Shown one piece after another: positions 24,599 to 38,345 of a stretch of 64,000 nucleotides of DNA; positions within the stretch are counted from its first letter, which is position 1; the number at the start of each line of letters is the position of its first letter. Where the stretch lies: contig JAHLWS010000087.1 of NCBI GenBank assembly GCA_019057795.1, positions 1 to 64,000 on the forward strand, read 5' to 3'. A program made the translations under genes and the position numbers. Under the pieces are notes generated by a model, which was given only the letters and a program-made list of their open reading frames with translations, did no database searches and was not told the origin of the DNA. The stretch is from Promethearchaeota archaeon. Its GTDB lineage: Archaea > Asgardarchaeota > Lokiarchaeia > Sigyniarchaeales > SOKP01.

Positions 24599-25228
24599 AT
24601 GGAAGTTTTAGAGTTTCATCCTATAAAAAATAAAACGGTTAATGTCTATTTAATAAGAAGAGAAGACAGAGATTTATTAAGTTTACATAATAGTAATTTA
24701 GAAAAAATCATAGAAGCAGAAAAATTTAAGTTTGCAATTGTTGATTTTAACGATCCTGAGGTTAAAAAATATTATCAGACTCCTTTATCAGAGTTTATAG
24801 AGAAATTCCATTTGCCTTATTACGAAGTTGAAATCCCTGAAAGTATTAAATCTTATTTTTATGTTGAGCTTTTAGACTTGGAAGTACAGATAGAAGAATT
24901 AGAGGGAGAATATGAAAAACTTCTTTTGAATAATCAAAAAGATACATTTAAAGCTCAGAGCTTAAACTCCTGGATATATTTGTTAAAAGATAAAGTGGAA
25001 TATACTAAAAACCTATTAGAATATACCATAAAACCAAAATGGATTGTAAAAAAAATATTAGATGTTGTAAATAACATCAAAAATGATAATTTATCTATAA
25101 TCCATTTTGCTCATGAAGATTTAATTTCTGAACTGAAAAAATTATTTGAAGAATATAATATCAAAGTCATAAAATATGATATTCGAGAAGAGAAATTAAA
25201 ATCAATCGTAATGTTAAAGGAGGGATGA
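24599..25228 (+). CDS. Hypothetical protein, paralogous to the N-terminal domain of the next gene
   Basis: Shared blocks LPYYEVEIPE / IPYEFVDIPD and WIYLLKD / WKQLLKD. ATGA overlap with the next gene. Confidence 0.7.
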   Translation: MEVLEFHPIKNKTVNVYLIRREDRDLLSLHNSNLEKIIEAEKFKFAIVDFNDPEVKKYYQTPLSEFIEKFHLPYYEVEIPESIKSYFYVELLDLEVQIEELEGEYEKLLLNNQKDTFKAQSLNSWIYLLKDKVEYTKNLLEYTIKPKWIVKKILDVVNNIKNDNLSIIHFAHEDLISELKKLFEEYNIKVIKYDIREEKLKSIVMLKEG

Positions 25229-26895
25229 AAATAATGCAAGTTTTAGAATTAAAACGATTAAAAGAAAAAAAACTTAAATTAATATTAGTTGAGAGTGAAT
25301 TTAGGATAGATTGGGCTTTAGAATTACCAAAAGAAGAAGGAATACTGGGTAATTTATTTTTTGTTTCTAGGGCGTACATAGAATTTATTAAAGATTTAGT
25401 GAACAAATACCACCCTAATTTCGTAGTAGAAGATAAAGGAATGCGCTCAAGTGAAGAACCATCTATTGATGATGAATTTGGAGCGATTTTTCTAAATGCA
25501 GATATCCCATATGAATTTGTGGATATTCCGGATTATGCATTAAATGTAATTTCAGCACCACTAATGGATAAGAAAGGTTTTATAAAAAAAATCACAGAAG
25601 AGATTGAAAGTTATAAAAAAATGGGTCGTGTACATTATAACGATCCTAATTTTCAACAGTTAATTATTTGGAAACAATTATTAAAAGATGATTTCAAAGC
25701 ACAAGAAGATGAAATAAGATATAAAGTCCGTGAAGCTTGGATGATGATGACTATCTTAGAATTAGCCAAAAAACAAGAAAAAAACCAATTAAAAGCATTT
25801 TTTATTACTGATAAAAGTCATTTTGATGGTATCACATTTTTAGCTAAAGAATTGGATATAGGAATTGAAATAATTAATCTTAAGAAAGTTACAGAATATC
25901 CTGATGAAGAAACATCGATTAATGACTTATTGAATAGATCTATACTTGAAATAATGCCTATAAAAGTTATAAAAAAAGAAAAAGAAGAAAGAATTTTATA
26001 CTTTTTTGATACGGATGAGTATTGTTCTCCTTTTGATACAAATATGGGCTATGATGCGGGATTTGATATAGTAATACCATATTCTAGAATGAAAGCAGAC
26101 AGTGTCTCAAGGCTAGTTCAAGATGCTATGTTCTCTCGAAAAGCGGGAGCTTCTTCAGTTTATTTTGTTGGTGGTTCTGATGTTATAGAAAGTGAAAAAA
26201 TTGCGGAGGAAGTTTTGAAAACAATTATTCCTCCATTTGAATCTCCTGTAATTATAGATCCACGTGGTTCTCATACAACAGCTTCAGCAATAGTTGCAAA
26301 AACACTAGAGGTTGCAAGAAAACATGGATTTTCAGATTTATCAGGTAAAAAGATAATTTGTTTAGGAGGAACTGGCCCTGTAGGGCAAATTTCCGCTCTA
26401 ATTGCTTCAAAACTTAAAGCAAAAGTAGTCATTACTTCAAGAAGAGAACAATTCGTAAAAGAATTGGCAAAAGATTTGACTAAGAAGGCAGGAAGAGGTG
26501 CCACTAAGATTATAGGAGAGCCCGCAAATTCAGATGAACAATATCTGAAAATAGTGAAGGACGCAGATATAATATGGTCTGTTGGTAAAGCAGGAGTCCA
26601 AATAATCTCAAATAAATTAATGAACCAACTACCTCCAAATAAAATTGTCGTAGATATTAACTTGGTTCCCCCCTATGGAATAGAAGGAATGAAACCAGAC
26701 TATTATAATACGGAGTTCTATCCGGGTATTTATGCGATAGGTGCTCTTAACATAGGACGATTAAAATACAAAATTGAGAGGGAAATCTTTAAGAAAGCTT
26801 TAAAGACAAAAGGTAAAAAAGTCTTTGATTATAATATTGCTTTTGAAATTGCTAATAAGATAGTATTTGGCGAGGAAATAAAAATCTTAGTTTAA
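25225..26895 (+). CDS. NAD(P)-dependent methylene-H4MPT/H4F dehydrogenase (MtdA/MtdB family) with a ~250-aa extra N-terminal domain
   Basis: ILYFFDTDEYCSPFDTNMGYDAG, VQDAMFSR, DPRGSHTTASA, GGTGPVG, DINLVPPYGIEG, IGALNIGRLKYK. Confidence 0.88.
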   Translation: MKIMQVLELKRLKEKKLKLILVESEFRIDWALELPKEEGILGNLFFVSRAYIEFIKDLVNKYHPNFVVEDKGMRSSEEPSIDDEFGAIFLNADIPYEFVDIPDYALNVISAPLMDKKGFIKKITEEIESYKKMGRVHYNDPNFQQLIIWKQLLKDDFKAQEDEIRYKVREAWMMMTILELAKKQEKNQLKAFFITDKSHFDGITFLAKELDIGIEIINLKKVTEYPDEETSINDLLNRSILEIMPIKVIKKEKEERILYFFDTDEYCSPFDTNMGYDAGFDIVIPYSRMKADSVSRLVQDAMFSRKAGASSVYFVGGSDVIESEKIAEEVLKTIIPPFESPVIIDPRGSHTTASAIVAKTLEVARKHGFSDLSGKKIICLGGTGPVGQISALIASKLKAKVVITSRREQFVKELAKDLTKKAGRGATKIIGEPANSDEQYLKIVKDADIIWSVGKAGVQIISNKLMNQLPPNKIVVDINLVPPYGIEGMKPDYYNTEFYPGIYAIGALNIGRLKYKIEREIFKKALKTKGKKVFDYNIAFEIANKIVFGEEIKILV

Positions 26896-27029: not shown

Positions 27030-29783
27030 TTAGTTGAGAAACAAGAGTTTACCAATAAAGCTTGTTAGATCCACGACTTTAATTTTGTTTTTTAATTCTT
27101 TCTCTTCGTTCAAATAACAATTAAAGTGGGCTAAACACTTGGGGCAACTAACAATTAGATACTCGGCACCAGTATCGATCGCCTCTTTAATACGGGTAGC
27201 TTGAATCTCTTTTGAGTACTCATTACAACTTATATAAGCGGAAACTCCACAACATAAAGCATCTTTTTTATTACTCTCCATCTCAATTAATTCAATAAAT
27301 GGAATCTTATTTAATACTTCGCGGGGCGCATCGTAAACATTACTCAATCGTCCTAATCTACATGCGTCGTGATATGTAACTCTTATTTTTTCAGAAATTG
27401 GGAATTTAACATCGTCTATTAAGTGTTCCTTTAGGATGTACTCTGTTACGTGATAAATCTCAAAGTTAAACTCGTCAGTTCCTTTAAATAATTTTGGATA
27501 CTCATATTTCCATGTATGATAACCCTCTGCACAACTAAGTATTAATGTTTTTACTCCAGCGTCGTTAAATAACTGAACATTGTGTCTTGCTAACTTTTCA
27601 AATGTATCAGTATCTCCTTGCCATAAACTATCGTGTCCACAACATTTTTCGTTTGAAAGAACTACAGGCACAATTTCTTTTTGGTTTAAAAGACCTATTA
27701 CTACTCTTGGAATCTTAAGGAAATCCAACGCATTATAAAAAGGAACAACGGGTTGTATACCATAACTACAATCTTGTATATTAGATTCATCGCATGAATT
27801 TACGTAAACATCTAATTTTTGATCTGTACTACAACAAATATTGCAATTTAAACACCTACTTGCTTCTTGGATTGCACTTTCTTCCGTGAGAGGTAATTCG
27901 ACCTCATTAAAGCTTCTTAATCTTTCTTGTATAGGCAACAAATCTATACATTCTTTGGGCATTTTACTGGCTTCTTTTTTAGGTATTGGAGCAAGTTTAG
28001 AATATTTTTTAATGACTCTATTTTTTTTTAAACCAACTCCTCTAAGATATCTATCAATAGAAATCGCTGCATTATTTCCATTTCCTATGGCTCTAACAGC
28101 TATCCCTTCGCCTGGGATTACATCTCCCCCTGCAAAAATGTTAGGAACATTAGTTTGCATTGTTAATTCGTCTGTTATAATTCTCCCCCACCGGTCTATT
28201 TCTAATTGGTCATGAGCAGCTTCTAAAAGCGTTAATTCTGTACCTTGTCCAATAGCAAGTAGCAGAAAATCAAGGTTCATTTTAAACTCTGATTCTTCTA
28301 TAGGAATTGGTCTTCTCCGACCAGATTTATCTAATTCGCCAAGCTCCATACGAATGCATTCTATTTCTTTAAGAATTCCTTCTTGATCTCCAATTGCTTT
28401 TATTGGATTTGTTAAAAATTGAAACTCAACATTTTCTTCCTTTGCCATTTCAATTTCTTCTTCTTGAGCGGGCATTTCCTTTTCAGAACGACGATAAATC
28501 ACTACGACTTTCTTAGCACCTAATCTTAAAGCAGTTCTAGCAGAATCCATGGCAACATTTCCTCCACCTACTACGCCTATAATTTTATCTTTGAAATCAA
28601 ATTGTTTTTTTGTTAAATTTTTATCTTTGAGAAAATTTAGACCGCATAAAACGTTCTTAAGGTTCTCTCCTTCCATTTTGAGCCCTAAACAAGTCTGCTG
28701 CCCTATCGAAATAAAAAAGGCTTTATAGCCCTGTTTTTCTAAATTTTTAAAAGATAATTTAGGTCCTACGGGAGTATTTAATTTTATTTCAACTCCCATT
28801 TTTTCGATAAAGTCAATTTCATAATCTAAAATATAGGCAGGTAAACGATATCTTGGAATCCCAGATCGTAAAGTCCCTCCTTTATAAATCTCTGCTTCAA
28901 ACACAGTAGGTTTATAACCTTGTCTCGCTAAAAAATAAGCTGCGGATAACCCTCCAGGACCAGCACCTATTATAGCTACTTTTTCCTTAAATTGCTTAAC
29001 TGGTTTAATACTGGATTTTGCTTTGTTGTTTAATTCCCAATCTGCGATGAATCTCTTTAAAGATCGAATACCAAGAGCTTCATCGATATCTTTGCGATTA
29101 CATTCAAGCGCACAAGGCTCTGTACAAACTCGCGCACATATCATAGGAAAGGGGTTGCTTTCCCTAATTAAATCAATAGCTTCTTGAAATTTACCTTCCG
29201 AAATTAATGAGATATAACCTTGAACATCAACTCCTGCGGGACACGCATTAGAACACGGAGGAATGGAATTCATAAAAGGAAGGCACCCCATAAAATAGGC
29301 GGTTTCCCCTTTGTCTGTAAATTTTAATTTAGTGTAATCTAAAAACCCGAGTTTGTTATCGATACTAACATTGTCATTTGCCATTAATTGAGGTAAACTT
29401 GAATATACTCTATCGTGATGACATTCAAGTTGTTCTGTCTGTAAAATCTCAGATTCGGAAGTAAGAGTGCGGAGACTTTTAATAATTTCTACAAAATCTA
29501 CACCAGTATTATCCTTAAACATAGGACAATACTCCATGCATTGCCCACAAGTTAAGCAGTTCCAAATATTATTGTTTTCTAACGCTTCCTCTAGCGGTAG
29601 GAAAGTCAAATCAGTAATCAATTTTCTTGGAAAAAACGTACCTACAAAACTTGTAGGACATACGTTAACACAACGATTACAATCGTAACAATAATTTGCG
29701 TTGGCTATTACTTTATTAATGACTTCACTATAAATTTTAGACCTTTCTTTTTTAACACTTTCAGTATCTTTAGATTCAGTCAT
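27030..29783 (-). CDS. HdrD-like (HdrC plus two CCG domains) protein with an inserted NfnB/GltD-like FAD/NADPH module
   Basis: CYDCNRCVNVCP, CLTCGQCMEYCP, AYFMGC; insert PPCSNACP...GAGPGG...GGGNVA...YRR...RCLNC; then EKCCG, SCAEG, YHDACRLGR, CCG, SCPKC. Confidence 0.88.
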   Translation of the reverse strand: MTESKDTESVKKERSKIYSEVINKVIANANYCYDCNRCVNVCPTSFVGTFFPRKLITDLTFLPLEEALENNNIWNCLTCGQCMEYCPMFKDNTGVDFVEIIKSLRTLTSESEILQTEQLECHHDRVYSSLPQLMANDNVSIDNKLGFLDYTKLKFTDKGETAYFMGCLPFMNSIPPCSNACPAGVDVQGYISLISEGKFQEAIDLIRESNPFPMICARVCTEPCALECNRKDIDEALGIRSLKRFIADWELNNKAKSSIKPVKQFKEKVAIIGAGPGGLSAAYFLARQGYKPTVFEAEIYKGGTLRSGIPRYRLPAYILDYEIDFIEKMGVEIKLNTPVGPKLSFKNLEKQGYKAFFISIGQQTCLGLKMEGENLKNVLCGLNFLKDKNLTKKQFDFKDKIIGVVGGGNVAMDSARTALRLGAKKVVVIYRRSEKEMPAQEEEIEMAKEENVEFQFLTNPIKAIGDQEGILKEIECIRMELGELDKSGRRRPIPIEESEFKMNLDFLLLAIGQGTELTLLEAAHDQLEIDRWGRIITDELTMQTNVPNIFAGGDVIPGEGIAVRAIGNGNNAAISIDRYLRGVGLKKNRVIKKYSKLAPIPKKEASKMPKECIDLLPIQERLRSFNEVELPLTEESAIQEASRCLNCNICCSTDQKLDVYVNSCDESNIQDCSYGIQPVVPFYNALDFLKIPRVVIGLLNQKEIVPVVLSNEKCCGHDSLWQGDTDTFEKLARHNVQLFNDAGVKTLILSCAEGYHTWKYEYPKLFKGTDEFNFEIYHVTEYILKEHLIDDVKFPISEKIRVTYHDACRLGRLSNVYDAPREVLNKIPFIELIEMESNKKDALCCGVSAYISCNEYSKEIQATRIKEAIDTGAEYLIVSCPKCLAHFNCYLNEEKELKNKIKVVDLTSFIGKLLFLN

Positions 29784-32643: not shown

Positions 32644-32778
32644 CTTAATTTTTTTATCTTATTTATTTATATTATTTTTTTATTTCTCTTATTTTCAAAT
32701 GACTATTTGAATGGATATTCTCACAATATTTTTTTCCTACTCGAAAAATTTAAATATTTCGAGTATATATTTTTTATA

Positions 32779-33030
32779 ATGACCATTCATACTGATACTA
32801 TAATACTAAAAATTGGATCAAAAGGAGAAATCTTTCCTCCCAAGGAAATTCGAAAAAGACTTGGTTTTGAACCAAATCAACCCATTTTATTATATATTCA
32901 TCACGATCAATTAATCATAAGAAAACTTCATTCTATTGAGGAAATTTTGAATTCTTCACCAAAGACTAAAATTAGTTATCACGCTTGGAAACAATTTAAA
33001 GAGGAATTAGGTGAGGACTATGAAATATGA
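32779..33030 (+). CDS. vapB: AbrB/MazE-fold antitoxin (ATG 32779 is more likely than the track start 32707)
   Basis: KIGSKGEIFPPKEIRKRLGF...LIIRK. ATGA overlap with the PIN gene. Confidence 0.82.
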   Translation: MTIHTDTIILKIGSKGEIFPPKEIRKRLGFEPNQPILLYIHHDQLIIRKLHSIEEILNSSPKTKISYHAWKQFKEELGEDYEI

Positions 33031-33530
33031 AAATTCTAATTGATACATCATACTTTTTACCTCTCATTAAAATTGGGATTGAAAATATTCCCCAAACTAC
33101 CTTGGTTAATCTTTTAGCTAAAACATCTTTTGAATATTTTTATTCAAATCTCACTCTTTTTGAACTCACAGCGAAGGGATTAAAAATTTCATCTCAGGAA
33201 AATATAATAACGCCACAAGACATTAGGATTGGAATTGATGCCATTCAAAACGACTCGCGTCTCGTAGAAAAGTCGTTTATTGATAATCCATTAATCATCG
33301 AATTAGCATCTCAATTAAAAGCAATTCATAAAGATACAATTGATTGTTTGATTTTCGCTACAGCTATCTGTATTTGTGATTGTATCGTTACCATGGATGT
33401 ATCATTCTTCGATCAAATCAATAAAGTGCCCTCGTTAATCAATGCAATTAGAAAAATCAATGAAAACTTCCATTTTTGGTTCAACGACCTCTCAGATGAT
33501 TTAAGGGCTCTTAAATCAATTGATTCGTAG
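33027..33530 (+). CDS. vapC: PIN-domain toxin
   Basis: ILIDTSYF, TLFEL, DTIDCLIFATA, IVTMD. Confidence 0.85.
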   Translation: MKILIDTSYFLPLIKIGIENIPQTTLVNLLAKTSFEYFYSNLTLFELTAKGLKISSQENIITPQDIRIGIDAIQNDSRLVEKSFIDNPLIIELASQLKAIHKDTIDCLIFATAICICDCIVTMDVSFFDQINKVPSLINAIRKINENFHFWFNDLSDDLRALKSIDS

Positions 33531-33787
33531 AATGTTCGTATGTTTCAATTTTTTCTTATTTTTATTCAATTTATTTTTAGTATTTCAATTTATATCGTAA
33601 AATCTAAATTTAATAAGAGATAATTACCAGAATTGAAAACAAACTAAGTGAAGAGTAAGAATAATTGAACTTTAATAAGAAGTATTATTTACAATATCAT
33701 TATTATTTAATCAAATACAATTAATACAATTCGTTATAGGATTAAACCTTTAAAATTAGGAGGATACAAATATAAAAGGTGGAAAAA

Positions 33788-35749
33788 TTGTCTGAAGAAC
33801 AGACCAATAGTAAACACAAAATCGGAGCATTTATATGTAGATGAGGAGTTAATATTGGAGGCATTTTAGATGTGCCTAAAATTGTAGAAGAGATTGATAA
33901 ACTCGACGATGTTTGCGCTTATGAGTATTTAAATTTGTGTACTTCTGGAGGAGCTGAATTTATGAAAGAACAAATAGACGAAAAAGGCTTCGACAGAATT
34001 ATCATGGCTGCTTGAACTCCAATAACACATGAACCAGTATTTCACGCTATTTTAAAAGAAGCAGGATTGCCACAGAGATATTTGGAATTTGTCAACATTA
34101 GAGAACATTGTAGTTACGTTCATCAAGCTATGGAAGTAAGAGATGACGCTACACTTAAAGCAATAGAATTAGTAAAAGCAGGGATTTCAAGATCGCAATT
34201 TCTGGAAGAAATACCTACAAAAACAGTTGATGTAAATCCTACATGTTTGGTTATTGGTGGAGGGATTGCTGGCTTAAGTGCTGCAATTGATTTGGGAGAT
34301 GCAGGATATAAAGTTTATTTAGTTGAAAAGAAAACTACCATCGGTGGTCGTATGAGTCAATTAGATCGAACATTTCCGACAGACGATTGCAGTATCTGAA
34401 TATTGGGGCCAAAGATGTTAGAAGCTGATCGGCATCCAAATATAGAAATGCTTACTTATAGTGAAGTAGAAAAAGTCGAAGGATATATAGGTAATTTTCG
34501 AGTTCAAGTAAAAAGAAAAGCGCGATTTGTCATTGAAAGCGAATGTACTGGGTGTGGCGCGTGTACGGAAGTATGTCCGATATACATTCCTAATTATTTT
34601 GATGAAAATCTGTCGGCTCGGAAGTGTATCGATATTTCATTCGCTCAAGCAGTTCCGGCAGTTTACGACATTGCAAGAGAATCGTGTGTAGAATGTTTTG
34701 CATGTGTCGATTCTTGTGATTTGGAAGCAATTGACTTTAGCCAACAAGATGAAATAGTAGAACTTGAAATAGGAACAATAATTGTGGCAACAGGATGGGA
34801 TATATATCAAGAAGACGATTATGGGTACGGAAAATACGAGAATGTAATCACACAAATCCAATTAGAGAGAATCCTTGCTCCAAATGGTCCTATGTTTGGT
34901 CATTTGGTACGCCCCTCAGATGGAAAGCGTCCAAAGAAAATATTATTCATTAACTGCGTAGGATCACGAGATTTAAAAAAGAATGAATATTGTAGCGTAG
35001 TTTGTTGTAATTTATCTGTTAAGAATTCCAAACTTATAATCTCTGAATATCCCGATTCCGAAATTACAGTATGTTATATAGATATGAGATGCGGAGGGAA
35101 GATGTATGAAGAGTATTATAAAAGAGCCAGAGATGCAGGAATTCTTTTTGTTAAAGGGATGATAGGAAGCATAGAAGAAGATCCATTAACACAGAATCTT
35201 ATCGTTCAATTTGAACCTGTTGGAACCGATACAATAGTAAAACTGGAAGTTCATATGGTTATTTTGTCATCGGCATCGCTACCTTCTCAAGGCACAAATG
35301 AAATTGCTGCTATAATGAATATCGAGAAAACATCAGATGGGTTCCTAAAAGAAGTTCATCCACGTTTAGAACCAATCAAGACGAAAGTTCCAGGAATTTA
35401 CTTAGCTGGTTCTTGTCAAGGTCAAAAATCGATTGAACTAACAGTAAGCCAGGCTAAGGGAGCAGCATCTTCAGCAGGCATTCCAATGGGACGAAGAGAA
35501 TACGTTATTGAATTAATACGCGCCCAACCAATAGACGAAAGATGTGCAAAATGCTATAAATGTATTGACGCTTGTCCATACAATGCAATTTCTATTAATG
35601 ATGAAGGAACGATTGTTGTAGATGTAATAAGTTGCAGAGGTTGTGGAATTTGCACTGCAATATGCCCTTCTAAAGCAATAGATTTAGCGCATTACAAAGA
35701 TGTTCAATATTCAGTTTATATTGACGAATTATTGCCTATTGAGGATTAA
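33788..35749 (+). CDS. hdrA: Heterodisulfide reductase subunit A, selenoprotein with 3 Sec (UGA at 33842, 34013, 34397); 653 aa
   Basis: One frame from TTG 33788 (AGGTGG upstream) to TAA 35747-35749. The UGAs fall in FICRUG, MAAUTP and TDDCSIUIL, where HdrA has conserved Cys. This joins track ORFs 34067..34399 and 34403..35749. Also NIREHCSYVH, GGGIAG and two ferredoxin domains. Confidence 0.95.
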
Positions 35750-35762
35750 AGAGGTAATTAAA

Positions 35763-36197
35763 ATGAGAGACAACGATATTAAAATTCTATCCTTTTTATG
35801 TTTAAAATGAGGCTATGGTGCAGCTGATATGGCGGGAACAATTAGAGCTCAATACCCCGTATCTTTAAGAACCGTTTTAGTTCCATGCACAGGAAGAATC
35901 GGTTCAGATGTAATTATGAGAGGTTTTGGGAGAGGTGCTGACGGAATACTCGTTGTAGGATGATACATTGGAGAATGTGATTATGAAAAAGGTAACTATT
36001 TTGCTCATAGATCAATCGCCTATATAAAAGAAGTGCTTAAAACCGTCGGACTTAACCCAAAAAGAATAAAAATGGAATATTGTAGTTCAGCGGAAGGTTC
36101 GAAATATCGGGAAGTAGCAATTGCTTTTGATGAAGAAATACGGAAACTTGGACCGAGCCCATTACGTAAAAAAAAAGAAAACTCCTCTAAAAAATAA
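35763..36197 (+). CDS. mvhD: MvhD/VhuD [2Fe-2S] adaptor subunit, selenoprotein with 2 Sec (UGA at 35808, 35961); 144 aa; absent from the ORF track
   Basis: MRDNDIKILSFLCLKUGYGAADMAGTIRAQYP...VPCTGRI...GADGILVVGUYIGECDYEKGN...SSAEG...LGPSPLR, ending at TAA 36195-36197. Confidence 0.95.
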
Positions 36198-36199
36198 AT

Positions 36200-36258
36200 G
36201 TGTTAGCTAATGAGGCTGAGTTAAAAAAACGAGAATTCAGCTGAAGAAATGGGAGCAC
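36200..36258 (+). ncRNA. Eukaryote-like (Loki-type) SECIS element
   Basis: AUGA 36210-36213; stem GGCUGAGUU (36214-36222) pairs with AAUUCAGCU (36234-36242); A-rich loop AAAAAAACGAG; GA 36243-36244; lower stem GUGUU/AGCAC. It begins 3 nt after the mvhD stop. Confidence 0.88.
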
Positions 36259-36368
36259 CATATAACACATTAAAAAATTTTATAAAAATAAATATATCAA
36301 AAAAAAAAAGTTTAAAATTTTTTAAAAAAATTAAATCAAAAACAAGAAATTAAATTTACAGTTTTGAG

Positions 36369-37508
36369 TTGGAAAACATGGATACAATAGATGAATATCT
36401 AATAAAGATTGAAGATTTTCCTAAATTATTAACAACGTTATTAAAAGAAAAAGTTGTTAGCAAAATAATTGGGACAAAAGTAAAGGTAGATAAAAAAACT
36501 CAGAAAGAGGACAGATTTACGATTTCTCCAGAACTCTACGAGAAACCAGAAGATATTTCGGGTTTTCCCTTAACTAACCTAATTGCATATGGGTACGCTA
36601 GAACAGATTCAGCTGCGAAATTTTTACATAAGTCAGTTAACGGAGCATTGAAAGAAAAAGTAGGACTTATTGCTCGCCCTTGTGACACAAGGGGGATAAT
36701 TGAGTTAGTAAAAATTAGACAGATCAATTTAGATAATCTTTTTATCATTGCTTTTGAAGACAGAGGAATGGTGATAAACGTTTCTCGCCAGATAAAGAAG
36801 ATGGAAGGTATTGATCCGACTAAAGTGGTTAAGGAAAAAATCGGAGATAAGGGTTTAATTCTCAAGTTTGAAGATGGAAGCACTAAAGAAGTAGGATTAG
36901 ACATAGCAGAAAATTGTACGCGCTGTGTTAGAAAAGTTCCGGTTGTTGCTGATTTGGGAATTAGCGATCTAATATTGCCTATCGATTCTGACGAAATAAT
37001 CCTTAAAGTATATTCTACTAAAGGAGAAGAACTTGTAGAAAAATCAAAAATTAACAAGAAGCCATTACCTGATGACATGAAAACAAAAGACGCGGAAAAG
37101 CTTAAAGAAATCAAAGAAACAGCCCTCGCAAAAAGAGTAAAGGATTTAGAAGAATGGGACAAGCTTTCTCAAGAGGAAAAGATGACTAAACTACAAGCAT
37201 GTACTATGTGTGGAATGTGCATTAGAGGATGCCCTGTTTGCTACTGCGTTGACTGTATTCTAACGAAGAAGCGAAAAACAAAAACTATAAATAAAGAGAC
37301 ATATCAATTAACTCGAATTGCCCACGTTGCTGACCGGTGCGTAGAATGTGGCAACTGTGATAATAATTGCCCAACGCATTTACCGTTATCTCTGTACTTT
37401 CAATCGTTAAACGACTCATTTAAAGAAAAGTTTGGTTACAATGCTGGTGAGAGCTTGGAAGATATACCCTTTAGATCTGGGAAAGCAATAAGCGAAATGG
37501 AGTTATAA
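36369..37508 (+). CDS. FdhB/FrhB-like (F420-dependent dehydrogenase beta) subunit with C-terminal 2x[4Fe-4S]
   Basis: GLIARPCD, QINLDNL, ENCTRC, ADL, CTMCGMCIRGCPVCYCVDC, CVECGNCDNNCP. Confidence 0.85.
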   Translation: MENMDTIDEYLIKIEDFPKLLTTLLKEKVVSKIIGTKVKVDKKTQKEDRFTISPELYEKPEDISGFPLTNLIAYGYARTDSAAKFLHKSVNGALKEKVGLIARPCDTRGIIELVKIRQINLDNLFIIAFEDRGMVINVSRQIKKMEGIDPTKVVKEKIGDKGLILKFEDGSTKEVGLDIAENCTRCVRKVPVVADLGISDLILPIDSDEIILKVYSTKGEELVEKSKINKKPLPDDMKTKDAEKLKEIKETALAKRVKDLEEWDKLSQEEKMTKLQACTMCGMCIRGCPVCYCVDCILTKKRKTKTINKETYQLTRIAHVADRCVECGNCDNNCPTHLPLSLYFQSLNDSFKEKFGYNAGESLEDIPFRSGKAISEMEL

Positions 37509-37580: not shown

Positions 37581-38345
37581 ATGTCGTTACCGGCTAAAAA
37601 AGCAATCGAGATTGATTCAAATATTACTCATTACATTTATAAAATGCTAAACCACGAAATGATTCTAAAATACGACGAAAGCAAGTGTATTGAGTGCGGT
37701 TTTTGTCACCGAGTTTGTCCCGTAACCATTTCAATTTACGATGAACCCTTAAAAAAGACGGCAATCGGAACGCCAGAAGAAATGAGGGTAGAGTCTGACA
37801 AAAAAATCGTAGTTGATGTAGAGAAATGCATCTGGTGCGGAAGTTGCACTTGGATCTGTCCTGGATACACTTTGGAACTAATTATAAACGGAGAAAACAA
37901 GATATTATTGGTCGAAAACGGTTCTCTTCCAGAATTTGAGGAAGAGGTTCGCACTTTAGAGAACGGTCAGAAAGTTCGCAAGGTAGTAGAAGGTTCTATT
38001 ACAATTACTTGCGATGAAAAAGATAACAAAGTTATTGACGCATTCGCGGACGAATGTGCTGTTGGCGCTATGTCTCGGGAAGGAAAGGAAGTAGTTGTAG
38101 ACATTGATAAGTGTATTCTATGTTTCAAATGTACAGAAGCCTCAAAGAACTACGATAATATTAGCGTAAAGGTTTTCCGCGATAGATTCAAGAAAGTAAA
38201 AGGAGAACCATCGTCTGTATGGAACGCTATAAATTTGCGAGTGCTTGGAAAAGAAGGAAAAATTAAAGGTATTATGAGTCGAAGTCAAAACAAACTCGCA
38301 GATGCCGTTATGCGCTTATTAGGCAAGGAATTTAGCGAGGAATAA
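37581..38345 (+). CDS. Polyferredoxin-like Fe-S protein (FwdF/MvhB-like)
   Basis: CIECGFCHRVCP, CIWCGSCTWICP and a degenerate third pair (ECAVGA, CILCFKC). Confidence 0.75.
   Translation: MSLPAKKAIEIDSNITHYIYKMLNHEMILKYDESKCIECGFCHRVCPVTISIYDEPLKKTAIGTPEEMRVESDKKIVVDVEKCIWCGSCTWICPGYTLELIINGENKILLVENGSLPEFEEEVRTLENGQKVRKVVEGSITITCDEKDNKVIDAFADECAVGAMSREGKEVVVDIDKCILCFKCTEASKNYDNISVKVFRDRFKKVKGEPSSVWNAINLRVLGKEGKIKGIMSRSQNKLADAVMRLLGKEFSEE

Follow-up and report, generated by a model that had tools for sequence, protein, structure and literature searches.

A Lokiarchaeial hdrA-vhuD gene pair with five in-frame UGA codons and a single eukaryote-like SECIS element

The stretch of DNA analysed here, called the window, is 64,000 nucleotides (nt) long and is taken from contig JAHLWS010000087.1 of a Promethearchaeota archaeon (assembly GCA_019057795.1; 4.95 Mb, 87 contigs, 31% G+C). 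Between positions 33788 and 36197 it carries two adjacent genes, hdrA and vhuD (the latter also known as mvhD), which hold in-frame TGA codons. An initial annotation, made from the letters alone, had placed five such codons at 33842, 34013, 34397, 35808 and 35961 and had read each of them as selenocysteine (Sec, U). All five were found at these coordinates and in frame. The locus is, in all likelihood, an ordinary Lokiarchaeial (Promethearchaeota) hdrA-vhuD selenoprotein gene pair with a shared selenocysteine insertion sequence (SECIS).

Structure and identity of the gene pair

When TGA is translated as U, hdrA reads through for 653 codons and vhuD for 144, and each frame ends in TAA. These are the lengths that had been proposed, and both products match their families over the full length. 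The listing of open reading frames (ORFs; translation table 11) breaks hdrA into pieces of 47, 110 and 448 amino acids (aa) and shows vhuD only as pieces of 44 and 54 aa, in agreement with the claim that standard ORF calling splits hdrA. The features of the pair are as follows, the Sec residues being predicted from the in-frame TGA.

33778-33782 (+): GGTGG, Shine-Dalgarno-like motif of hdrA, seen in the sequence
33788..35749 (+): hdrA; TTG start, TAA stop; the start codon is shared by the orthologue gene calls
33842..33844 (+): HdrA Sec19 (CRUG); aligns with Cys13 of M. thermolithotrophicus HdrA
34013..34015 (+): HdrA Sec76 (AAUTP), a facultative Sec site; aligns with Cys71 of M. thermolithotrophicus HdrA
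34397..34399 (+): HdrA Sec204 (CSIUIL), the canonical HdrA Sec; equals Cys197 of M. thermolithotrophicus (5odc_A), Sec197 of M. maripaludis and Cys205 of M. marburgensis
35763..36197 (+): vhuD/mvhD, [2Fe-2S] subunit; ATG start 13 nt past the hdrA stop, TAA stop at 36195-36197
35808..35810 (+): VhuD Sec16 (CLKUGY); equals MvhD Cys16; X in 9sfi_K
35961..35963 (+): VhuD Sec67 (VGUYIGEC); equals MvhD Cys67; X in 9sfi_K

The hdrA product has the layout of a thioredoxin-reductase-like flavoprotein with flavin adenine dinucleotide (FAD), together with an N-terminal Fe-S domain, an inserted ferredoxin domain and a C-terminal ferredoxin domain. Against the NCBIfam model HdrA2 (NF040770) it scores 734.7 bits, with residues 11-649 covering model positions 1-641, and it matches the PDB chains 9sfi_A (E 1.8e-202) and 5odc_A (E 5e-194) from end to end. 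The NCBIfam equivalog cut-offs lie higher than the scores obtained (1100 bits for HdrA2; 1400 for HdrA NF041778, where the product scores 613). The HdrA2 model contains a fused MvhD domain, which is a separate gene at this locus. As the scores fall below these cut-offs and neither hdrBC nor hydrogenase genes are adjacent, the label "CoM-S-S-CoB heterodisulfide reductase" is unjustified. By its sequence, the product is filed as a member of the HdrA family and not as a proven heterodisulfide reductase of coenzymes B and M (CoB-CoM); the name HdrA/VhuD-type bifurcating module is justified.

The vhuD product matches the Pfam family FlpD (PF02662) with 138.9 bits (gathering cut-off 22.3) over profile positions 1-123 of 123, and the MvhD chains in PDB with E 1e-35. 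It aligns 1:1 to the numbering of M. marburgensis MvhD (9sw2_D) without a gap, and therefore U16 corresponds to Cys16 and U67 to Cys67. In public protein collections, HdrA is mostly found as a C-terminal piece of 444 aa that goes under the name "4Fe-4S binding protein" or "heterodisulfide reductase subunit A". An exact look-up in a protein collection returned the ATG-start forms, while the TTG-start fragments were absent.

Conservation of the UGA codons

Two sets of orthologues were gathered. The first came from a six-frame search of 40 relatives, where hdrA orthologues were seen to hold two to three in-frame TGA codons and paralogues one to five. The second came from a scan of species-representative genomes, which gave 80 loci, nearly all titled Promethearchaeota or Promethearchaeia, and an HdrA alignment of 81 sequences; the closest of these loci, "Loki_b31", is 98% identical. 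Over the 653 columns of this alignment, TGA is confined to columns 19, 51, 76 and 204, and where it is absent from them a Cys codon stands in its place.

HdrA column 19: TGA 80/80, Cys codon 0
HdrA column 51: TGA 6/81, Cys codon 75/81
HdrA column 76: TGA 17/81, Cys codon 64/81
HdrA column 204: TGA 81/81, Cys codon 0
VhuD codon 16: TGA 79/79, Cys codon 0
VhuD codon 67: TGA 79/79, Cys codon 0

It had been claimed that every TGA sits on a conserved Cys, and this is borne out both by the orthologues and by the alignment with solved Cys-type methanogen chains; so narrow a restriction to Cys sites goes far beyond chance. The initial annotation had also proposed to look among orthologues for TGA or TGY at these sites, and nothing other than TGA or a Cys codon was found there (81 HdrA, 79 VhuD).

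The same genome holds further hdrA + vhuD pairs on other contigs; the in-frame TGA codons of these and of the window pair are counted below.

Contig C87 (window): TGA 3 + 2
Contig C22: TGA 4 + 2
Contig C42: TGA 2 + 2
Contig C5: TGA 2 + 2

Two Sec per HdrA are read in 57/81 orthologues and three in 23/81, with up to five in paralogues, and hence the three-Sec HdrA is mid-range for the lineage. The core had been called unusually Se-rich; this stands against methanogens but not within Lokiarchaeia, where an HdrA with 2-5 Sec is the rule and where the same genome has a four-Sec paralogue.

The gap between hdrA and vhuD is 13-22 nt in 77/78 orthologous loci. Among 78 loci, hdrA never stops at TGA (TAA 49, TAG 29), and vhuD does so in 8. 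In two more distant relatives (G031:C209 and G033:C1), the HdrA frame with TGA translated extends past the normal end of the protein, to 828 and 806 codons. Either a UGA stop of hdrA or another gene layout could lie behind this; a UGA stop would be an exception to the rule of non-UGA hdrA stops.

The fragmentary table-11 ORFs, together with the mostly 444-aa public records, could also be taken to mean that the genes are pseudogenes, or that assembly or sequencing errors are at work, so that the TGAs are nonsense mutations. However, TGA recurs at these very codons in as many as 81 independent genomes, the frames are otherwise intact, and no other TGA occurs in 653 columns. Independent metagenomes carry near-identical or related sequence, and among the differences listed none lies at the five codons. 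The alternation of Sec and Cys at the sites and the lack of TGA elsewhere in the alignment exclude such readings, whose probability is negligible.

A different proposal is that TGA encodes a standard amino acid here, either Trp (table 4) or Gly (table 25), which would make the five codons ordinary sense codons. Some JGI/IMG calls on short contigs do give full-length orthologues of 653-656 aa with W at three sites (CRWG, AAWTP, CSIWIL). Yet TGA ends 346/2520 long frames of the genome, about as often as TAG, and in the window only hdrA and vhuD need to be read through; elsewhere in the genome TGA is an ordinary stop codon. In addition, TGA occurs solely in columns that are otherwise invariably Cys, and the locus has its dedicated SECIS in a genome with a complete Sec pathway, which leaves a reassignment extremely improbable. 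The W-containing proteins were set aside as artefacts of table-4 gene calling, as they place Trp in HdrA columns 19 and 76, which are Cys in 149/149 distant homologues.

The SECIS element

Directly after the vhuD stop lies a hairpin that is recognised, from its fold, its covariation and the published geometry, as a eukaryote-like SECIS of type I (lokiSECIS). This key mechanistic element was absent from the initial annotation. Its parts are listed below.

36198..36270 (+): lokiSECIS as a whole
36198-36205 with 36263-36270 (+): lower helix of 8 bp, which encloses the rest
36210-36213 (+): AUGA; the signal begins 13 nt past the vhuD stop
36214-36222 with 36234-36242 (+): helix II of 9 bp
36223-36233 (+): apical loop of 11 nt, A-rich, AAAAAAACGAG
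36243-36244 (+): GA
36249-36261 (+): small conserved hairpin

The fold has an energy of -18.1 kcal/mol (z -3.8). Across 15 orthologues, 94% of the pair cells are standard, and six of the nine pairs of helix II show double-sided changes. The covariation score was reached by 0/500 shuffles, and controls slid along the alignment fall to 30-45% paired. Under a strict pattern, the element is found 3' of vhuD in 68/78 loci; in the other 10, visual inspection showed it in a form with a bulge or an altered loop. A pattern scan of the window returned one such hairpin only, after vhuD, with no second in or after hdrA, and hdrA is therefore taken to have no SECIS of its own.

The segment between the SECIS and the next gene (36271-36377) is extremely A/T-rich, with long runs of A and T. 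A scan for promoters and terminators of the bacterial type gave sites no more numerous than in shuffled sequence.

Selenocysteine machinery in the genome

The initial annotation had suggested a search for the genes of Sec synthesis and insertion. All of them are in the genome: a tRNA-Sec, two SelD, PSTK, SepSecS and EFSec. SepSecS scores 484 bits, which is over its cut-off. EFSec has selB as its best NCBIfam match (234 bits, against 153 for EF-Tu) and also carries Pfam aSelB_III. PSTK, a protein of the KTI12 fold, has selen_PSTK as its best match with 143 bits. The two SelD/SPS genes are adjacent (contig C26:15739-18079) and hold one in-frame TGA each.

The tRNA-Sec is not visible to standard tools over the whole genome: the Rfam model gave ordinary tRNAs under the cut-off only, and Aragorn gave none. 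In Lokiarchaeota, a tRNA-Sec gene with an intron in the T-loop and with linkage to EFSec has been described (Mariotti et al. 2016; PMC4989117). Guided by these two properties, the search located the tRNA-Sec (UCA) gene beside SepSecS, at contig C73:91757-91912 (+); SepSecS follows ~80 nt downstream, and EFSec lies ~3.2 kb away. The acceptor stem of the tRNA has 9 bp, its anticodon loop reads CUUCAAA and its variable arm is long. Two introns interrupt the gene, a D-arm intron of ~32 nt and a T-loop intron of ~30 nt. The Rfam alignment of this locus reaches 28 bits and requires a 31-nt insert, while Aragorn recognises a tRNA-SeC(tca) after in-silico excision of the two introns. The published Loki gene has the T-loop intron only, whereas this genome adds the intron in the D-arm.

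Evidence from RNA

Most of hdrA is covered by metatranscriptome contigs from three libraries; the contigs come from related strains and are 90-99% alike to the locus. One contig of 683 nt covers all three hdrA TGA codons, and another of 658 nt runs from the 3' end of hdrA through vhuD to the SECIS. Among the differences listed for these contigs, none falls on a TGA codon. All of them end at 36283, where a low-complexity stretch starts that was skipped as a repeat, and this end point permits no inference on the 3' end of the RNA. The coverage lends weak support to expression.

Proposed decoding and its weighing

The two genes, 13 nt apart, are probably carried on one mRNA. The single SECIS, which is of the kink-turn type, would probably guide the archaeal EFSec and its Sec-tRNA(Sec) to each of the five UGA codons, which lie as far as 2.4 kb upstream. 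In this manner, Sec would be placed at positions 19, 76 and 204 of HdrA and at 16 and 67 of VhuD. The resulting flavin-based, electron-bifurcating core would be made of the FAD and Fe-S clusters of HdrA and the [2Fe-2S] cluster of VhuD. In the lineage, a conserved FrhB-like gene is found downstream in place of hdrBC or mvhAG.

It is also conceivable that UGA is recoded partly or mainly as Cys, or in a SECIS-independent way (for example under selenium limitation), so that Sec and Cys are mixed, or that each cistron has a separate, undetected signal. At HdrA sites 51 and 76, TGA and Cys codons replace each other freely among orthologues, so Cys is functionally tolerated there. Moreover, the action of one hairpin over 2.4 kb and across a cistron boundary is without experimental demonstration (Mariotti 2016; PMC4989117). 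On the other hand, no orthologue departs from TGA at HdrA 19 and 204 or at VhuD 16 and 67, a constancy that speaks for selection of an advantage specific to Sec, and no second SECIS-like element occurs in or after hdrA. Such recoding is thus regarded as unlikely, and Sec insertion through the shared SECIS is strongly preferred.

Several points nevertheless weigh against Sec insertion as described. An Rfam search over 33600-36500, with E up to 10, gave no family match, including the eukaryotic SECIS RF00031; the likeness of the lokiSECIS to eukaryotic SECIS rests on the motif only. PSTK (143 bits) and EFSec (234 bits) are under the NCBIfam equivalog cut-offs. The RNA data are assembled contigs of related strains, by which neither a single transcript is proven nor carry-over of DNA excluded. 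For this lineage no SECIS-binding protein is known (Mariotti 2016; PMC4989117), and no protein-level evidence of Sec in any Asgard archaeon was found in the literature consulted. The residue roles, in turn, are drawn from alignment and conservation, not from coordinates.

Possible roles of the selenocysteine residues

For the HdrA N-terminal domain (N-domain), 149 diverse, distant homologues were obtained by a profile search among 1.8 billion representatives. Columns 17, 19, 51 and 76 are Cys in 149/149 of them, and column 108 in 119/149. U19 and U76 thus belong to a quartet of invariant Cys positions in this domain, and the quartet most plausibly binds the mobile [4Fe-4S] shuttle cluster. The proposal that the two extra N-terminal Sec replace Cys of the Fe-S motif is therefore upheld by conservation, although the ligand role does not come from coordinates. 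The position of codons 19 and 76 within this quartet is a modest addition to the known system.

At position 204, the assignment as the canonical HdrA Sec site stands, but recent work by cryo-electron microscopy (cryo-EM) describes it as part of a Cys-Sec pair next to FAD and not as a plain cluster ligand. In these cryo-EM papers, the Cys-x-x-Cys/Sec pair at the equivalent site sits between the mobile clusters and FAD. Sec197 of M. maripaludis forms a selenenylsulfide-like bridge, and Cys202/Cys205 of M. marburgensis bind an unknown ligand. By analogy, U204 may belong to a Cys-Sec redox pair near FAD. In an earlier reading of a crystal structure, the N-terminal cluster has a ligand in Cys197 from the partner subunit; a literature search for the Cys ligands of the N-domain cluster returned one paper with this partner-subunit Cys197 and no complete ligand list. 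It had further been stated that HdrA and VhuD are selenoproteins in Methanococcales and Lokiarchaeota and that CSIUIL is the classic site. This is in line with Mariotti 2016 and with the 9sfi chains, in which a non-standard residue (X) stands at the 204 position of HdrA (9sfi_A) and at 16 and 67 of VhuD (9sfi_K).

In VhuD, U67 is predicted to be a [2Fe-2S] ligand by elimination, the remaining conserved Cys being 13, 42, 67 and 72, and U16 is a candidate relay Cys without a ligand role. As regards a possible equivalence of HdrA Sec19/76 with VhuD Sec16/67, BLASTP found no match between the HdrA N-domain and MvhD, and hhalign gave E 0.11 and a probability of 0.5%, with all five Cys in register. 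A predicted model of the N-domain (pLDDT 81) matched MvhD chains in Foldseek with E ~3e-3 and TM 0.38, a generic flavodoxin-like level, and MvhD was not among the 50 entries listed by VIA-align.

A tentative suggestion, which is rather doubtful, is that the bifurcating enzyme gathers its selenium on the mobile arm through which electrons enter. Of the invariant N-domain Cys quartet, two members (19, 76) would be Sec, Sec204 of the partner subunit would reach the same region, and the predicted [2Fe-2S] ligand 67 and the relay Cys 16 of VhuD would likewise be Sec. If this were true, enzymes of the Loki type would have partly selenolate-ligated Fe-S clusters and, in addition, a selenol relay that tunes the low-potential branch, with sites 19, 204, 16 and 67 obligatory and sites 51 and 76 adjustable.

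Gene neighbourhood

Two further genes follow the pair on the same strand.

36378..37508 (+): FrhB/FdhB-like Fe-S flavoprotein gene; start TTG 36369 or ATG 36378; Pfam FrhB_FdhB_C + 4Fe-4S
37581..38345 (+): polyferredoxin-like 4Fe-4S protein of 254 aa; in 18/80 loci, many loci ending before the gene

A homologue of the FrhB-like gene lies downstream, on the same strand, in 76/80 orthologous loci, and its ATG-start form is present in public databases. The FrhB-like protein is a likely partner of the HdrA-VhuD module. Upstream, genes for an aldehyde:ferredoxin oxidoreductase (AOR) and an Fe-S subunit are found in about one third of the orthologous loci.

Between the AOR/Fe-S genes and hdrA, the window holds an AbrB/MazE-like antitoxin gene (107 aa) that overlaps a gene for a PIN-domain toxin (167 aa; together 32707-33530, +). 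A tblastn comparison with the 80 orthologous loci gave no match to either gene, and for this reason the pair looks like a genome-specific insertion. At 27030-29783 (-), ~4 kb from hdrA and on the other strand, an HdrB-like module is encoded. It is a 917-aa fusion with a 4Fe-4S ferredoxin at the N-terminus, a GltD-like NAD(P)-binding flavoprotein part (Fer4_20 + Pyr_redox_2) and, at the C-terminus, two CCG domains of the HdrB type. At 25225-26895 (+) lies a gene for a 556-aa protein with an N-terminal methylene-tetrahydromethanopterin dehydrogenase domain (Mpt_N), the rest being unmatched.

Comparison with known systems

In Lokiarchaeota, multi-Sec HdrA and VhuD were reported to share one lokiSECIS (Mariotti et al. 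2016; PMC4989117). According to this report, the HdrA proteins hold the canonical Sec and extra ones at conserved Cys, with five possible positions; one lokiSECIS after vhuD serves up to six UGA codons over ~2 kb, and the hdrA stop is non-UGA. A later survey of Asgard archaea counted 1439 selenoprotein sequences, among which HdrA and FrhD/VhuD were the most abundant families (ISME J 2024; PMC11227280). The finding at the present locus is real and correctly read, and it was already known (2016, 2024).

The likeness to the published Lokiarchaeota pairs (PMC4989117) extends to the canonical Sec near 200 with extra Sec at conserved Cys, a vhuD on the same strand after a very short gap, two VhuD Sec ~50 codons apart and an hdrA stop other than UGA. 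It also includes the sole SECIS 3' of vhuD, built from AUGA, a stem of 9 bp, a loop of 11 nt that opens with A's, and a GA, as well as a tRNA-Sec near EFSec with a T-loop intron of ~31 nt. Nothing essential differs; here, HdrA has three Sec (up to five positions are published) and an FrhB-like gene follows the SECIS.

The HdrA(u)/VhuD of Methanococcales (PDB 9sfi/9t1s; PMC13518236) share the domain architecture, the adjacency of hdrA and vhuD, and Sec at the site that is numbered 197 in their HdrA and 204 here, as well as at the VhuD sites that are 16 and 67 in the window locus. They differ in having a single HdrA Sec, an archaeal SECIS with a GAA/A bulge, and pairing with HdrBC, VhuAGU and methanogenesis, whereas at the window locus HdrA has two additional Sec in its N-terminal domain, the SECIS is of the eukaryote-like kind, and neither hdrBC nor hydrogenase genes lie next to the pair. 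With the eukaryotic SECIS_1 (RF00031), the lokiSECIS shares a place 3' of the coding sequence, the AUGA...GA core of a putative kink-turn, unpaired A's that open the apical loop, and action at a distance. It is different in its shorter stem, its fixed 9 bp + 11 nt and the lack of a known SBP2 in the lineage, and in that it would serve two cistrons.

Standard gene callers leave hdrA and vhuD truncated or overlook them, and the public records hold either the 444-aa fragment or a full-length protein mistranslated with Trp; as a result, metabolic reconstructions of Asgard archaea can under-count both proteins. The remaining value of the locus lies in its annotation and in a site-by-site Sec map, which may help groups that work on the recently solved Hdr complexes: Sec is constant at four positions and facultative at two, and the extra ones lie in the invariant Cys quartet. 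The system as such is the published intermediate between archaeal and eukaryotic Sec decoding, of which this locus is a further clean example and not a discovery.

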